Of a DNA stretch of 64,000 nt, positions 4,583 through 31,661 are shown in pieces. The position numbers and the translations under genes were made by a program. This DNA comes from an uncultured delta proteobacterium (GTDB lineage: Bacteria; Desulfobacterota; Binatia; Binatales; Binataceae). The notes beneath the pieces are model-generated. The model was not told where the DNA came from. It did no database searches and saw only the letters and a program-made list of their open reading frames with translations. The DNA is taken from the NCBI GenBank assembly GCA_963711565.1, contig CAVQEQ010000001.1, positions 384,001-448,000 on the forward strand. Reading direction: 5' to 3'. The stretch's first letter is position 1. Every line of letters begins with the position of its first letter.

Positions 4583-5799
4583 GATGCTTCCACGGGCGGC
4601 TCTCCCGCTCCTGTCCCTTCCGCGCTGTACGCATCGTCGGCCGCGGTCAGCGCCCTTCCCCGCGCAATCTCGAATCCCATCGAGCCGAGAATCTCTTCGA
4701 GCGTGTTGAGCGCGAGCATCACGTTCTCACGACGCGAACCTTCGCCCATCAGGCCGACGCGCCAGATCTTGCCCTTGAGCGGTCCGAGTCCTGCCGCAAT
4801 TTCGATATTGAACAGCCGCAGCAATTCCGCGCGCACCTTGACGTCGTCGATTCCGGCTGGCACCGCGATCGTCGTGAGCTGCGGCAAGCGATGTCCTTCC
4901 TGCGCGGCAAGCTGCAGACCCATCGCGCGCACTCCGGCCTGGAACGCAGCCGCGTTGACACGATGCCTCTTCCATCGCGCTTCCAGCCCTTCCTCGACGA
5001 CGATCCGCAGCGCCTCGTAGAGCGCATAGTTCATCGTGATCGGCGCCGTATGGTGGTACAGCCGGTCGGGCCCCCAGTACTGCTCGATCAGAGCAACGTC
5101 GAAGTACCACGAGCGGCACTTCGTTTTGCGCGTGCGCACCGATTCCATCGCGCGCTCGCTGAACGTCACCGGCGACAGCCCCGGCGGCGCGCCGAGTCCC
5201 TTCTGCGTGCAGCTGTAACACGCGTCGATGTTCCACTTGTCGATCTCGACCGGCACGCAGGCGAGCGAGGTCACCGCGTCGATCGCAATCATCGCGCCGT
5301 GTCGATGCGCGAGCTCGGCAATTTCCTCGACCGGCTGATGTATCCCGGTCGAGGTCTCGGCGTGAACGACCGCGACGAGCTTCGGATTCTTCGCGGCCTT
5401 CAGCGCCGCCGCGACCTTTGCCGGCTCGACAATCGTTCCCCAATCCGCCTCGACCTTGCGAACCTTTGCGCCTAGCCGCGACGCGACTTCCGCCATCCGC
5501 GCGCCGAACGCGCCGTTGACACCGACCACGACCTCGTCGCCGTCTTCGATCAGATTCGCCATCACGGTTTCCATCCCCGCTGAACCAGTGCCCGAGACGG
5601 GAAACGTGATCTCATTCTTTGTGCGGAACACGATGCGCAGTAGCCGCTTGATGTTCTCCATCACCTTCAGAAAATCGGGATCGAGATGCCCGACGACCGG
5701 CGACGCCATCGCCTTCATCACACGCGGATTGACGTTCGATGGTCCCGGACCGAGCAGAATCCGCGCCGCAGGCCTGAGTTCCGGAAATGTATCCGCCAC
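4579..5799 (-). CDS. Alanine/serine-glyoxylate aminotransferase (class V PLP enzyme)
   Basis: LLGPGPSNV, VSGTGSAGME, VHAETSTG, DAVTSL, SCTQKGLGAPPGL (PLP Lys); GTG start at 5799 after GAAGGAG. Confidence 0.93.
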   Translation of the reverse strand: MADTFPELRPAARILLGPGPSNVNPRVMKAMASPVVGHLDPDFLKVMENIKRLLRIVFRTKNEITFPVSGTGSAGMETVMANLIEDGDEVVVGVNGAFGARMAEVASRLGAKVRKVEADWGTIVEPAKVAAALKAAKNPKLVAVVHAETSTGIHQPVEEIAELAHRHGAMIAIDAVTSLACVPVEIDKWNIDACYSCTQKGLGAPPGLSPVTFSERAMESVRTRKTKCRSWYFDVALIEQYWGPDRLYHHTAPITMNYALYEALRIVVEEGLEARWKRHRVNAAAFQAGVRAMGLQLAAQEGHRLPQLTTIAVPAGIDDVKVRAELLRLFNIEIAAGLGPLKGKIWRVGLMGEGSRRENVMLALNTLEEILGSMGFEIARGRALTAADDAYSAEGTGAGEPPVEAS

Positions 5800-20720: not shown

Positions 20721-20809
20721 CGCTTTTCGGCTCGCAGATTTGCCTTGAATGGTTGCGCGGAAGTCTCTTAGAATCGCGGCTTGACGAATCGGATCGCCAG
20801 AAGGAAACG

Positions 20810-21676
20810 ATGGGGATTGAGTTAAAAAAATTCGACACCAGGCTGCAGGCCGAAGGACCCGAGGTTAAACATCTCGATCCAGCCGCAGCGCCGTTTTACC
20901 TGCCGATTGGCGACGAAGTGGAAATCTTCACCGCCGCCTACAAGGCGCGCCTGCCCTTGCTACTCAAGGGGCCGACGGGATGCGGCAAGACGCGCTTCGT
21001 CGAGCACATGGCGCATCAACTGTCGTCGCTCGCCAACGGCCCCAACGAACTGATCACTGTTGCGTGCCATGAAGATCTTACCGGCAGCGATCTCGTCGGC
21101 CGCTTTCTGATTCAGGCCGACGAGACGGTGTGGGTTGACGGTCCGCTGACGCAGGCGGTACGGCGCGGCGCGATTTGCTATCTCGACGAAGTGGTCGAGG
21201 CGCGCAAGGACACGACGGTGCTGATTCATCCGCTGTCGGATCATCGCCGGATTCTGCCGATCGAAAAGCGTGGCGAGACGATCGAGGCGCACGAGGGATT
21301 TCTGCTGGTGATTTCGTACAATCCCGGCTACCAGAGCATCCAGAAAAATTTGAAACACTCGACGCGCCAGCGCTTCGTGACGATCGAGTTCACCTATCCC
21401 CCCGCCGACAAGGAAGTCGAGATTATCGCGCACGAGGCGGGCGTCGAGCAGGATATCGCGCTGCAACTCGCGGTGCTGGGCGAGAAGGTGCGCCATCTTA
21501 AGGCGTCGGGATTGGAAGAAGGCGTCTCGACGCGCCTGCTGATTTACGCCGGCGAACTGATCCGACAGGGAATTGCGCCACGGCGGGCGGCGACAGTCGC
21601 GGTCACGTGGTCGCTGACCGACGAAGCGGACAGCAAGCGCGCGATCGACGAAGTGGTGAAAGCGATCTTTCCATAA
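20810..21676 (+). CDS. CbbQ/NirQ/NorQ family AAA+ ATPase
   Basis: [59 protein letters not shown]; AAGGA RBS before ATG 20810. Confidence 0.92.
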
Positions 21677-27125: not shown

Positions 27126-27707
27126 CTACTGCCCGGCGCGGTCGGCCGCCCTCTGCGCGGCTGCGGCCGCTGCTGCCGCGGCGGCGTGGGTCTCAGCCGA
27201 TTTTTCCATCGTGGCCTGGCGCTGCTCGCCGCGCGCGAGATTCTTTCTCATTTGCGCGGCGCCCGCCGCGCCGAGGTTCTGCGTTTCCCACTTGGGCTTG
27301 GTGACAGAGACCCACTGGCCATTCTCAAGCGCATAGGTGAAGACGAGATACTTGAGGTTGCCGGTCGCGAGGCCCTTGGTCGTCCCCGGTTTCACGGGAT
27401 TGTACTCGACCCCGCCGAGCTTGCAGCTCACGACCAGGTGATTGTGCGGGCCGTAGGTGGGCAGGTACTCGAATTTCTGCAGGAGGTCTATGTACACCTG
27501 ACCCTTGGCTTTTTTTTCATCCTGCTCGTCAAAGTAGGGGCCTGACACATCGGAGAGTTTGTCCTGGAGCGACTGCTGTAGCGCCGGCGTGAGATCCTTT
27601 TGCGCGCGCGCGTGCTGCAAATCCATCGTCTGCGCGCGCGAGAAACACGGCGGAAAAAAGAACGCGGCCGCAAGGGCGACCGCGCTGAGTATCTTCAGAT
27701 TTTTCAT
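27126..27707 (-). CDS. Secreted/periplasmic hypothetical protein
   Basis: Signal peptide MKNLKILSAVALAAAFF...SRA-Q; poly-Ala C-terminus; co-directional with the exbBD-vWA cluster. Confidence 0.75.
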   Translation of the reverse strand: MKNLKILSAVALAAAFFFPPCFSRAQTMDLQHARAQKDLTPALQQSLQDKLSDVSGPYFDEQDEKKAKGQVYIDLLQKFEYLPTYGPHNHLVVSCKLGGVEYNPVKPGTTKGLATGNLKYLVFTYALENGQWVSVTKPKWETQNLGAAGAAQMRKNLARGEQRQATMEKSAETHAAAAAAAAAAQRAADRAGQ

Positions 27708-27754
27708 GACGTCCCGGTCACCATCATAATAGACGATTGGCCGGACGCAAATAT

Positions 27755-28975
27755 TTACGGGCTCGCGCTGCTCTGGTTCAGCCCACGCCCGAAAGCGGAG
27801 ACCTGCGACTGCCACTGGTCGCCGAAGGCGAGGATTAGCACCTGCTGGTTGATGTGCGCGTCCTTGCTCAACGACTTCATCGAGCCGCCGCCCGCCGTCG
27901 CGAGCACTTTGTACGCGGCCTGAGTCTGCCGATAGAATGCCGGCAACGGCGAGATCTTCGGCGGCTCCTCGCGATGCACCTTGAGCCAGAATTCGCGCTC
28001 GAATCGCTCATGCTCTTCCGCCGCCACGTCCACCGTGTTGAACGTCCCGTTGTTGGTCCTGAACTGCCGGATCAGCGCCAGCAGCGGCGCGAAGTCTTCC
28101 GTGCGCGGCGGCGAGTCGCCCACCAGCACGACCACCTTCTTGGCGTATGGCTTCCAATCCATCTTGTTGATGCCGGTCTCGACCGCGCCGAGCGTGTCCT
28201 CTTCCCATTCGCCGCCACCCATCGCCTGGATGGTGTTCAGAAAGTCGCTCAGCTTTTGCGGTGACAGGGTCAACGGCTGGATTCTCATCGGCTCGCCCTT
28301 GCCGCCGAACACGATTATTCCGATGCGTGCGATTGGCACCAGTCGATGAATCGACTGGACAAGTTGCTGCATCTTGGCCTTTACGTCGTCGATGATGAGT
28401 CGCATCGAGCCGGTGCCGTCGATCACGAGCACCACGTCCAGTCCTTTGCGTCTCAGCTCGCCGATGAACCCGCCGAAGCCTGAGCCGATGCCGTGGCCGT
28501 AGCCTGAGCCCATGCCGCCGCCGCGACCGATGCCGATACCGCCGCCGCCGGCTGCGCGCACGTAGTCACTGGCGAGACCCACGGCTTGCGACGTGTCAAC
28601 CGCGGTCGGCTGCTCCATCTGTTGCGGCGCCGTGTCGGGCATCGGCACTTCCGGCATGTCGAGATCCTGCATCTCGTTGCCGCCACCGCCACCGCCGCCC
28701 GCCTCGAGGTTCACCATGATCAATTCGCGCCCACGCTGCTCATGCACCGTGATGATCAGGAACAGCAGGCCGAGTACGTGAAGCGCGACCGATAGAGGAA
28801 ACGGCCCGATCAGCAGACCGAGCGCATCTTTCATTTTCTGAAGGCGGGTCGCGTCTGCTTCGTCGTCTTCCCGGTTCGCTTCGGCTTCGAGCTCTCTCTT
28901 GCCGAGTATCCGATAGAAGATGAAAGCGACGACGAACGTCGAGAGGACAAGCAAGATAATGATTACTGCGATCAT
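27755..28975 (-). CDS. Membrane-anchored vWA-domain protein with TonB/TolA-like transmembrane helix
   Basis: TM1 at aa 1-23; TM2 with S62-x3-H66; Pro/Gly-rich linker; MIDAS-like VIDGTGSM ... VLVGDSPP. Confidence 0.8.
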   Translation of the reverse strand: MIAVIIILLVLSTFVVAFIFYRILGKRELEAEANREDDEADATRLQKMKDALGLLIGPFPLSVALHVLGLLFLIITVHEQRGRELIMVNLEAGGGGGGGNEMQDLDMPEVPMPDTAPQQMEQPTAVDTSQAVGLASDYVRAAGGGGIGIGRGGGMGSGYGHGIGSGFGGFIGELRRKGLDVVLVIDGTGSMRLIIDDVKAKMQQLVQSIHRLVPIARIGIIVFGGKGEPMRIQPLTLSPQKLSDFLNTIQAMGGGEWEEDTLGAVETGINKMDWKPYAKKVVVLVGDSPPRTEDFAPLLALIRQFRTNNGTFNTVDVAAEEHERFEREFWLKVHREEPPKISPLPAFYRQTQAAYKVLATAGGGSMKSLSKDAHINQQVLILAFGDQWQSQVSAFGRGLNQSSASP

Positions 28976-28984
28976 ATTAAAATC

Positions 28985-29452
28985 CTACGCTCCGCCCCCC
29001 GGCGCCGGAGCACCAGCACCGCCTGGGGGTAGCGAAGATACTGCTATAGCTATCGCCTCGGCACCCGCCGACTTGGCCACGTCCAGGATACGAACCATAT
29101 CACCTAGTATAACCTTTGGGTCGCCCTGGAAAATCACGATTTTGTCGGTCGAATTCTGAAGCGCGTCATGAAGCTGAGGCATCAGCTCCGGCTCGGTGAC
29201 CTGCTTGTCGTTCAGGTAGATGAGATGGTCGGCGGTATACGTTACGATAATTCCCTTGGGCTTGTCGGTTGGCGAGGACGCGGCTTCGGCCTTGGGCAAA
29301 TCGACGTGCGCCGCGGACTCGATCGTCACTGCCGTCGTCACCATGAAGATAATCAGCAGGACGAGAAAGATATCGGTCAACGGGGTGATGTTGATGTCGG
29401 AAAACACCCCGCCGCCCTTGTTTTTGCTCATTTTTCCTTTTGCCATGCGCAA
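28985..29452 (-). CDS. ExbD/TolR family protein (copy 2)
   Basis: DINITPLTDIFLVLLIIFM with the conserved TM Asp; VDLP; FQGD. Confidence 0.93.
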   Translation of the reverse strand: MRMAKGKMSKNKGGGVFSDINITPLTDIFLVLLIIFMVTTAVTIESAAHVDLPKAEAASSPTDKPKGIIVTYTADHLIYLNDKQVTEPELMPQLHDALQNSTDKIVIFQGDPKVILGDMVRILDVAKSAGAEAIAIAVSSLPPGGAGAPAPGGGA

Positions 29453-29458
29453 GTACCT

Positions 29459-29917
29459 CTACGGGCTCCCCCCACCCGAGGGGTTGTTTTCCATTTGCGC
29501 ACCAGTAACCCGCTTGGCCGCGATGGCAATTTGTTCGGCACCTGCCGCCTTGGCGATATTCAGTATCCGCACCATGTCGCCGAGCAGCACTTTACGATCG
29601 CCCTGGAACACAACGATCTTCTGATCGACCTTACCCAGCGCGTCGCTCAGGGCGGAACGGAGCTCACGCTCGGGCACGTCTTTGGAGTTGACGAACAGCT
29701 CGTGCTGCGCGGTGTAGGTGACGATCACGCCCTTGTTCTCGGGCGCGGTGTTGGTTGCGTTGGGCAGATCGACGTGCGCGGCGGACTCGATGGTGACGGA
29801 GGTCGTCACCATGAAGATGATCAGCAGAACCAGAAAAATATCTGTCAGCGGCGTGATATTGATGTCGGAGAAAACTCCGCCACCTTCACCGCCCTGATGT
29901 GGTCCGCTAATTGCCAC
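29459..29917 (-). CDS. ExbD/TolR family protein (copy 1)
   Basis: DINITPLTDIFLVLLIIFM with the conserved TM Asp; VDLP; FQGD. Confidence 0.93.
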   Translation of the reverse strand: MAISGPHQGGEGGGVFSDINITPLTDIFLVLLIIFMVTTSVTIESAAHVDLPNATNTAPENKGVIVTYTAQHELFVNSKDVPERELRSALSDALGKVDQKIVVFQGDRKVLLGDMVRILNIAKAAGAEQIAIAAKRVTGAQMENNPSGGGSP

Positions 29918-30548
29918 GCGCTTGTCTCCCCTGGAGGGCAGCGTCGATCAGGCGGTCGTCGTTGATGTGCTGGATGGCGCTGATGTTCTCGACCTTGACG
30001 GAGAAATAGTTGAAGAAGATAACCGCGACGATCGCGACGGCCAGTCCAAGCGCGGTGGAAATCAACGCTTCCGAAATACCGGCCGCGACGACCGAGAATC
30101 CGCCGGTGCCCATGATTGCCATCGACTGGAACGCGACGAGAATACCGACGACCGTGCCGAACAGCCCGATAAACGGCGCCGACGCGCCCGCCGTCGCCAG
30201 CACCCAGATGTAGCGCTTGAACTCGAGCCCTTCCTGGTAGCGGCGCTCATCGTCGAGCTCGAGCAGATGATCGCGGTCCATCGTCTGCGCGCCCGAAATC
30301 AGCGTATGGAAAATACGCTCGGCCGCCGTCGCGCGAGCTTGAGTGGCCTGCAGCGCTTCGTTGAACTTGCCGGTCCGCAGATTCGGAATCAGCGAGTCAG
30401 CCAGCTTGGCCGTCCTGGGCCCAACGCCCCACAGTGCCCACACGCGCTCAAAAATGATCGCGAGACAAACGACCGAAATGAACAGCAGGGGATACGTTGC
30501 GTAGTAGCCCTGCTGGATCATCGACAAAATTCCAAAACTGCTTTGCAT
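29907..30548 (-). CDS. MotA/TolQ/ExbB proton channel protein
   Basis: APFIGLFGTVVGI and GISEALISTALGL; three TM helices; GAGAGGA RBS. Confidence 0.94.
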   Translation of the reverse strand: MQSSFGILSMIQQGYYATYPLLFISVVCLAIIFERVWALWGVGPRTAKLADSLIPNLRTGKFNEALQATQARATAAERIFHTLISGAQTMDRDHLLELDDERRYQEGLEFKRYIWVLATAGASAPFIGLFGTVVGILVAFQSMAIMGTGGFSVVAAGISEALISTALGLAVAIVAVIFFNYFSVKVENISAIQHINDDRLIDAALQGRQARGN

Positions 30549-31091
30549 CTCTTATCCTCTCGAGATTGATATAGATTGAGCGGCGAAATTTTGGCCCCGC
30601 CCGAACCATTGCAATAACTGCCCCAAACTGCCTCAGCGGTTCTCCCCTGAACCGGTTGTCAGCCCAAAGTAAATAGACTGGGCTCCCACCAGCCGGTCAA
30701 AGTGTCCGTCATGGCGCGGAAAGTCTGAATGCAACAATGGCAAGTATTTGTCAAGAGTCGCCGCGCGGAAGCAAAATTTGCAGACTGCGTCGTCCACGAT
30801 TGCGAATGGGCAGCGGCGGCTTCCTGCGCCGCGCCACGTCGCGCAATCTTTGCACCCCGCTCGACTATCGAGTCGGTGCATCACTTAGTCTAGACCCTTG
30901 GTCATGCTGCCGACTACCTCAAAATCGGTCGCCGACGGCACTGCGGACACCTCCGATCGCCTTGACTTCTTGGCCCCTCACGTCTATCCAGAAGCTTGCC
31001 ACAGCATGCCGCAGGTTGACCGCGATGCGGTCTTTGTTTTTTTGGGCGATTGACGCTTTTGAGAAATCTTGACCCACTACTTATTAAGACG

Positions 31092-31661
31092 GTGAATCGG
31101 CTCGGTCTGTTCAAGTTGGCCGCGCTGTCCGCCGCCTGCATGCTCGTATCCGCAGCCTGCAAATCAGCGCCGGTCGCCGCTCCAGTTGCCCCGCCGGTGG
31201 TTACCGCGACGGGCCCGACCGACGAGCCCAGCAACGCGCTACCTTCGGACTTGTACAAGGCGATGCCCATATATCCGGGCGCCAAGATCGAGCACGTCCG
31301 AAAACCCAAAGGTGCGATGCGCGAAATCCTGTTCAGCTCCGACGCCCAGATGCAGCAGATGCTGGCCTACTACAAGGAGCAGCTGAAGCAGAATGACTTT
31401 CACATAACGTCGTCGCTGATCATGCCCGCGCGCAAGACTTGGTCGTGCGATTTCAACTACCAGGGGCAGCCGGGCAGCATCATGCTCTACCCGAGCGATC
31501 AGGATAAGGCGAAGATGACAATCGATCTCATTTACGAGTTACCTGCGCACCTGGACCCATCTCTGATAGAACCCAAAGAAGATTTCGACGTAGAAGGACC
31601 GGGCGAAATCGCCCAACAAGCACCGAATCCAAATCCAACCGAAAAAGCGAAGAGGAATTAG
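31092..31661 (+). CDS. Hypothetical lipoprotein
   Basis: Lipobox-like VSAAC after a hydrophobic stretch; MPIYPGAK motif; start approximate. Confidence 0.7.
   Translation: MNRLGLFKLAALSAACMLVSAACKSAPVAAPVAPPVVTATGPTDEPSNALPSDLYKAMPIYPGAKIEHVRKPKGAMREILFSSDAQMQQMLAYYKEQLKQNDFHITSSLIMPARKTWSCDFNYQGQPGSIMLYPSDQDKAKMTIDLIYELPAHLDPSLIEPKEDFDVEGPGEIAQQAPNPNPTEKAKRN

Follow-up and report, generated by a model that had tools for sequence, protein, structure and literature searches.

The DNA analysed here is a 64,000-nucleotide stretch (the window) of contig CAVQEQ010000001.1, positions 384,001 to 448,000, in assembly GCA_963711565.1 from a soil bacterium of the family Binataceae. It contains an operon, at positions 27126..30548, that joins the genes of an ExbB/ExbD-type motor to orf406, whose product resembles the TonB/TolA arm of such motors and carries a vWA (von Willebrand factor A) head. 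Coordinates refer to the window throughout unless a contig is named; the genome is called G000, and C1, C3 and C4 are contigs of it. Five open reading frames (ORFs), exbB-exbD-exbD-orf406-orf193, all lie on the minus strand and are tightly packed, as a first-pass annotation of the same DNA had described: exbB and exbD1 overlap by 11 nt, and the remaining gaps are 6, 9 and 47 nt in order. The exbB/tolQ-like motor subunit (29907..30548; 213 residues, three predicted membrane helices) matches Pfam MotA_ExbB at 7e-26 but scores below the cut-offs of both the tolQ and the exbB models of NCBIfam, and it contains the GLFGTV and GISEALISTA motifs that had been read from the sequence. Two ExbD genes follow, exbD1 (29459..29917; 152 residues; Pfam ExbD 1.8e-23), which forms its own clade across Binataceae, and exbD2 (28985..29452; about 153-155 residues; Pfam ExbD 2.1e-24); both keep the transmembrane aspartate that the annotation reported (ITPLTD in exbD1), and ExbB and both ExbDs retain the proton-path residues. 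The vWA-headed arm itself, referred to below as copy A, occupies 27755..28975, and orf193, an accessory protein that is likely secreted (its signal peptide was judged by eye), ends the operon at 27126..27707.

The product of orf406 has two hydrophobic helices by hydropathy, followed by a linker and the vWA domain. TM1 (residues 2-22; 28910..28972, minus strand, as are all features of this gene) is predicted from hydropathy and from the bias in lysine and arginine residues (K+R) to run N-out/C-in, and is an extra helix of the Binataceae copies, lacking in the listed proteins from other Binatia. TM2 (28745..28804) is the predicted motor-docking helix and carries S62-x3-H66-x6-L73, the serine and histidine falling within the SVALH at residues 62-66 (codons 28778-28792) to which the first-pass annotation had pointed. 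This S-x3-H motif is present in 119/120 close homologues and, among the 78 cluster representatives whose N-terminus is long (mostly at 25-40% identity), in 67; S62, H66 and L73 are invariant in all 74 Binataceae copies compared (31 of copy A, 28 of B and 15 of C; B and C are described below) while neighbouring residues vary. By these sequence comparisons the motif is more than chance, and the loss of serine and histidine among homologues that the annotation had named as fatal to its proposal is not what was found. In terms of the SHLS-type signature, S, H and L are kept; the last serine is V77 in orf406, with T76 beside it. Shortly beyond the helix lies a candidate motor box, ELIMVNLE (residues 84-91; 28703..28726), with alternating hydrophobic residues I86/V88/L90 that are conserved among A copies (I in 30/31, V or I in 31/31, L or F in 31/31). 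The I-x-V-x-L pattern lies 24-28 residues after S62, and its position and pattern resemble the TonB D-box peptide quoted in PMC10907165 (citations by PMC number refer to the accessible portions of those papers).

Residues 92-172 (28460..28702) form a disordered linker, pLDDT <50 in the AlphaFold2 model, that is Pro-containing and then Gly-rich. Of its earlier description as Pro-rich then Gly-rich, the glycine part stands (26 Gly in 81 residues), whereas proline is only modestly represented (5 in 81); about 95 residues separate the end of TM2 from the vWA domain. The head (residues 173-398; 27782..28459) matches Pfam VWA_2 at 2e-11 with no TonB_C match, which is the outcome expected by the annotation for a profile search of orf406; neither PF03544 nor PF13103 was matched in Pfam, and a PDB sequence search returned glycine-run matches only. 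AlphaFold2 models the head as a vWA fold, which Foldseek matches with BatB, integrin I domains and Rpn10 at E-values of 4e-9 to 5e-7. Its metal ion-dependent adhesion site (MIDAS) is a variant, D186-x-T188-x-S190 with E259 and D287, so that the MIDAS-like DGTGS noted earlier is found at residues 186-190 together with D287; among 73 aligned homologues D186 is kept in 72 and T188, S190 and E259 in 70 each.

The head is predicted from charge patterns to be periplasmic. Across 111 proteins the mean K+R count is 0.02 before TM1 versus 4.2 after it, in agreement with the first-pass argument from the positive charges after TM1, and in 30/31 proteins the residues that precede TM2 include more K+R than those that come after it; the corresponding count in the anti-sigma copies is 6/21, where the test is weak. 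Zinc finger and FHA domains of the kind that precede the same helix in relatives are cytoplasmic, and their placement agrees with a vWA domain outside.

The association of this arm with a motor extends across the class. Database labels of its homologues point to Candidatus Binatus / Binataceae. In a wider survey, seeded with one protein and with genome searches made within the class Binatia, the vWA gene was present in 108/121 genomes of the order and in 74/101 of the class sample. The exbD pair, the vWA gene and orf193 occur together with the motor in 30/30 close loci; of 20 wider Binataceae loci, 18 have the motor beside the vWA gene, and the remaining two are second copies in genomes where a motor-linked copy also exists; and motor genes adjoin the vWA gene in 18/18 and 19/20 loci from other Binatia families, so that the linkage of homologues to exbBD that the annotation had proposed to check holds. 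Outside Binataceae the operon includes one exbD and an 800-residue tetratricopeptide repeat (TPR) gene. ExbD1 and ExbD2 are 63-67% identical; across the family each falls in a clade of its own, and the two clades are sisters, while a single exbD was present in 12/12 loci outside the family; judged from these sequences, the pair is a Binataceae-level duplication and not a divergent AglQ/AglS pair. Together these observations support the view that orf406 is anchored in the manner of TonB/TolA, belongs to this motor and holds its vWA head in the periplasm. Variation was also seen: in genus g8 (L066/L067, L068/L069) the motor-linked vWA gene lacks orf193 and a second vWA-orf193 pair lies elsewhere, and in L020 (genome G059) three exbD-like ORFs precede the vWA gene. 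Among distant relatives, the S-x3-H helix and vWA domain of P0216, P0231 and similar proteins are preceded by an FHA domain, as in GltG/GltJ, and P0243 has a possible zinc ribbon in that position.

This operon is the third motor of the genome, which has three MotA/ExbB genes. The other two lie in a tolQ-tolR-tolA-tolB-pal-cpoB locus and in a receptor-exbB-exbD-tonB locus, and since these two motors have their own TolA and TonB, orf406 is not a substitute for a missing one; it shows no similarity to the genome's own TolA. The absence of TonB-dependent receptors, tolB and pal from the window was correctly noted: five receptors are encoded in the genome, none of them in the window, and the tolB and pal genes that were found belong to the tol operon, some 59 kb distant. 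The window likewise holds no TonB_C and no second MotA/ExbB gene, the genome's three TonB_C-family hits lying elsewhere.

A candidate for what the arm holds is the TPR protein. A homologue is present in 16/18 loci of other Binatia, directly behind the vWA gene in 15, whereas the TPR gene is unlinked from it in every Binataceae genome compared; in G000 the orthologue (807 residues, with a signal peptide by eye) is a single, unlinked gene on the minus strand of contig C3 (C3:1106105-1108528). The two genes nevertheless share a distribution. In the class sample of 101 genomes, 72 have both, 26 neither and 3 are discordant (98/101 concordant), and among 41 Binataceae genomes 34 have both, 5 (in four genera) neither, 2 the TPR gene only and none the vWA gene only (39/41 concordant). 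Because the TPR protein tracks vWA far better than orf193 does, it appears from these gene distributions to be the likelier vWA target.

Two further vWA-arm copies, B and C, are encoded in the genome. Copy B (C1:592.1-593.5 kb) is 93% identical to copy A from residue 54 onward but begins with a Cys...H-x3-C-x2-C zinc finger, which is followed by the same helix, box, linker and vWA domain, and its gene lies directly behind that of a sigma factor of the extracytoplasmic function (ECF) type. This sigma type is carried by 31/121 genomes, from which 29 loci were retrieved, one ending at a contig edge; in all 28 with downstream sequence the sigma gene is followed by the zinc finger-vWA fusion. In protein databases 85 of 88 clusters combine the finger with S-x3-H-x6-L, the box is present in 88/88, and the source labels are Binatus/Binataceae with one exception. 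All four zinc ligands are found in 83/88 clusters, although the match to zf-HC2 is weak (E 0.004) and below cut-off, as is that of the sigma factor to its closest family, TIGR03001. The copy-B sigmas form one clade (100/100; 27 rows), and the anti-sigma of the sister sigma group has a zinc finger with an ordinary helix and a YCF48-like head; because of this arrangement, copy B likely had a single origin, in which the motor arm was grafted onto an anti-sigma. Loci of the sister sigma (L085, L087-L095) often lie 30-45 kb from the motor operon, and none was found in G000. Copy C is diverged and lies within 3 kb downstream in 16/19 loci. Its G000 representative (L001:14681-15865, equivalent to C1:600.7-601.9 kb), about 7 kb of other genes from copy B, is 51% identical, keeps S/H/L and the DGT motif, and is not homogenised. 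One locus first taken for a B copy, L053, was rejected as not being one, and in P0131 an ECF sigma is joined straight to vWA with no finger or helix, perhaps the result of a deletion or of faulty assembly.

Copies A and B evolve in concert. In a quartet test on the 18 genomes with both copies, more sites group by genome than by locus in all 111 between-genus quartets (3668 versus 60 amino acid sites; 3927 versus 497 synonymous sites), and within genera synonymous sites still favour the genome (34/42 pairs). A DNA tree of 12 of the 18 genomes with three outgroup rows (the protein tree was built by a quick method) makes A and B sisters in 9/12 genomes and rejects a single B clade (approximately unbiased test, AU p=5e-10); the ExbD pair, used as a control, sorts by locus and not by genome. 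Divergence between A and B at four-fold sites ranges from 1% (in G033, which has a 744-nt identical tract) to 49%, and their similarity ends just before the helix. The helix is less homogenised, with 0.39 synonymous differences per codon between A and B compared with about 0.20 elsewhere, yet S, H and L are kept in 28/28 B copies, so that these residues look selected in B. In a DNA run from another study, depth over the shared region was 270-530, compared with 135-180 in adjacent sequence, and a B-type loose end was present at the helix. Collapse during assembly could exaggerate the near-identical cases, but it would not account for shared derived changes in pairs at 30-40% four-fold divergence. 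The sequence patterns thus indicate that A and B are likely kept near-identical by recurrent gene conversion.

The explanation that we favour, with somewhat better than even confidence, is that the operon encodes a third motor whose arm docks by S-x3-H and the box and pulls the unlinked TPR protein via vWA, while the anti-sigma twin reports the state of the machine. We infer docking, binding, pulling and signalling as follows. By analogy with TonB and TolA, ExbB with ExbD1/ExbD2 would bind TM2 at S62/H66 and capture ELIMVNLE on the ExbD periplasmic domains, and a motor bound to TM2 and the box could then reel the linker in. The vWA head would grip the TPR protein, probably through its metal site, as the gene neighbourhood and shared loss suggest; this grip may be likened to that of GltG, which has been modelled to hold the TPR protein GltD (PMC11761067). 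Under this force, some component of the outer envelope would be remodelled or released. Copy B, staying matched to A, would engage the motor and target that A engages, and either load on the grip or its loss could trigger cleavage or release of the sigma factor. Signalling by copy B would then be an abbreviated form of the Fec system, in which force from TonB leads to cleavage of the anti-sigma (PMC12036975). Copy B may even be a mechanosensing anti-sigma that the motor tugs directly, the resistance of the vWA-TPR grip setting transcription without a receptor relay and conversion keeping the copies matched, an idea that we put forward tentatively and consider rather doubtful.

Several observations weigh against this explanation. 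The motor box is a short pattern that AlphaFold2 models as low-confidence coil (pLDDT <50) and not as a strand, and the second MIDAS aspartate, D287, is kept in 62/73 homologues but replaced in 11/73. Shared loss of the TPR and vWA genes shows a common pathway and not direct contact, and since the two share an operon outside Binataceae, the class profile is partly trivial; kin genomes, moreover, are not independent. No partner in the outer membrane came to light. The sigma/B locus has a patchy distribution (31/121 genomes), is missing from the near-complete genomes G009 and G023, and so is dispensable; and inspection by eye revealed no ECF-type promoter common to the regions upstream of sigma, exbB and TPR. 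With respect to concerted evolution, amino acid sites within genera are even (229 versus 224), genus g4 keeps A and B apart, and the two copies of G000 differ at 29% of four-fold sites, about the same as nearest orthologues. Finally, duplicates can be homogenised by gene conversion even when nothing is gained by it.

In one alternative the arm docks but does not pull, acting as a scaffold or sensor that positions the motor or the TPR protein, copy B being an ordinary anti-sigma with a borrowed ligand-binding vWA domain whose likeness to A is a by-product of conversion. Anti-sigmas that bear vWA heads and for which no motor link is described are on record, as in ECF289 (PMC7826278), the orf406 linker is rich in glycine and poor in proline, and copies B and C lie away from the motor genes with no common promoter seen. 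However, B and C keep S/H/L, and every B-type protein has the box, although the helix is less converted; and the motor subunits retain their proton path. We regard this alternative as unlikely, but as the strongest of the competing accounts.

An account that keeps the same motor and arm but has the vWA head grip orf193, which the first-pass annotation had offered as a possible ligand, is improbable. In its favour, orf193 lies behind vWA in all of the close loci, and in genus g8 (L066, L068) it remains beside the vWA copy that has become separated from the motor. Its overall distribution is different: it is present in 86/121 genomes and was not found in seven vWA-carrying genera, namely g2 (0/10), g5 (0/4), g18 (0/4), g26 (0/3), g6, g21 and g29, nor near vWA in other Binatia. 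Furthermore, a paralogue follows a plain tonB without vWA in 14/21 loci (G000 and 13 of 20 relatives), and a cobalamin riboswitch precedes the tonB-paralogue pair in 4/4; in G000 the riboswitch, a tonB with no motor genes beside it and the paralogue occupy L004:4976-6618, equivalent to C4:277.0-278.6 kb. The presence of the paralogue beside a vWA-less tonB points to the shared anchor or linker, and not the head, as the partner of orf193, which looks like an optional accessory of S-x3-H arms in general and not a specific vWA ligand. The protein matches no Pfam or NCBIfam family, its Atlas hits are <0.9, and Foldseek returned nothing below E 0.001; its model (pLDDT 84) has a weakly NTF2/cystatin-like fold plus a long C-terminal helix, and the best structural match (Z 7.3, rmsd 5.0, 95 aligned residues) is within the range of common folds.

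The annotation also likened the motor to AglRQS of Myxococcus, and an Agl-Glt-like gliding or adhesion motor with vWA acting like CglB can accordingly be considered, although we think it very improbable. The parallels to AglRQS-GltG-GltD (PMC11761067) are a motor with two TolR-like subunits to a single TolQ-like one, a TPR partner that an inner-membrane arm is modelled to hold in the periplasm, and, in relatives, cytoplasmic signalling domains such as FHA fused to the arm. Against these, the second ExbD is a recent family-level duplicate; the orf406 vWA domain is anchored in the inner membrane, whereas in the accessible account CglB is a separate outer-membrane lipoprotein and GltG ends in a TonB-like domain; and the GltE and GltG models have no match over their curated cut-offs in the genome, while the CglB model has none at all, its control also being without a match. 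A myxo_SS_tail hit at C1:369.3 kb proved to be an unrelated protein. That orf406 is a Bat/MoxR-type vWA assembly module with a chance motor neighbour is scarcely credible: BatB is among the top structural matches, and a CbbQ/NirQ/NorQ-type AAA gene (20753-21676) whose ATPase might act with it lies 6 kb from the operon with no link to it seen, but orf406 is without the BatA domain, the genome's BatA genes lie on another contig, no MoxR- or DUF58-like gene was seen beside related loci (from ORF listings, with no family-model scan of the flanks), linkage to the motor is seen throughout the class, and the head is predicted to be periplasmic.

Additional features surround the operon. A leader element upstream of exbB (30574..30607, minus strand), conserved across 22 aligned loci, is a single copy in this genome and may form a small 4+6 bp pseudoknot, with which it is compatible (98% of cells pair); its covariation is not above that of shuffles (73/500), and it has no Rfam match. 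On the operon's strand a scan for promoters gave no hit. In three metatranscriptomes, contigs extend over parts of exbB, exbD and orf406 but over little of orf193. Upstream of exbB in several genera is a divergent 203-residue ORF without a family, possibly a lipoprotein (31050-31661 in the window). The sigma and TPR genes have housekeeping-like hexamers upstream, and in the genus of G000 the sigma hexamers end a few bases before the start codon (L001 about 5235-5270), suggesting a leaderless transcript.

Returning to the reading of orf406 as a motor arm that pulls a TPR protein, the system appears to fall outside the TonB, TolA, Agl-Glt and Bat groups. It shares with TonB-ExbBD and TolA-TolQR the motor type, the S, H and L of the SHLS anchor, a candidate motor box and a three-part arm, but orf406 lacks TonB_C, the last serine of the anchor is replaced by V77, and no receptor, tolB or pal is nearby. 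As proposed here, it would resemble the Fec system (FecR/FecI, PMC12036975) in using motor force for sigma release; in the accessible description of Fec, however, the anti-sigma is separate from TonB and reached via a receptor, whereas here it is built on the motor-docking arm. The vWA head on the anti-sigma is shared with ECF289, which has DUF3520, a domain for which copy B gave no hit.

The closest likeness is to the vWA force transducers that were proposed computationally in 2025 (Williams-Jones et al., Mol Biol Evol 2025, PMC12204202 section 8), so that the basic design, whose novelty the first-pass annotation had implied, had already been put forward. Common to that class are an S-x3-H helix, a disordered linker and a vWA head, with adjacent motor genes, two ExbD/TolR and a co-occurring TPR protein, and orf406 has a candidate for its predicted motor box; the accessible text reports no target, phenotype or function. 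Our operon has four of the six listed class features: it has the SHLS-type helix, an approximately 100-residue linker with vWA replacing TonB_C, and paired tolR-like plus tolQ-like neighbours, and its TPR gene is co-distributed but unlinked. The text and searchable supplement of that paper contain no instance of 'Binat', and a literature search, which covered few subscription journals, returned no paper on a motor-arm anti-sigma or its concerted evolution, the relevant papers among its results being PMC12204202 and ones on gliding. The Binataceae system differs from the class, as the accessible text describes it, in its extra N-terminal helix, its unlinked TPR gene, its recent ExbD duplicate, the addition of orf193, and an anti-sigma twin under concerted evolution. 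What is added here is thus the unlinked, co-distributed TPR protein, the anti-sigma twin in concerted evolution, the family-level ExbD duplication and the orf193 accessory. A co-distributed TPR protein outside the operon provides a testable target, and with an anti-sigma as the twin of the arm, the regulon of its sigma factor should reveal the role of the machine. If the proposal is true, concerted evolution of arm and sensor would be an uncommon means by which a sensor stays tuned to the machine that it monitors.

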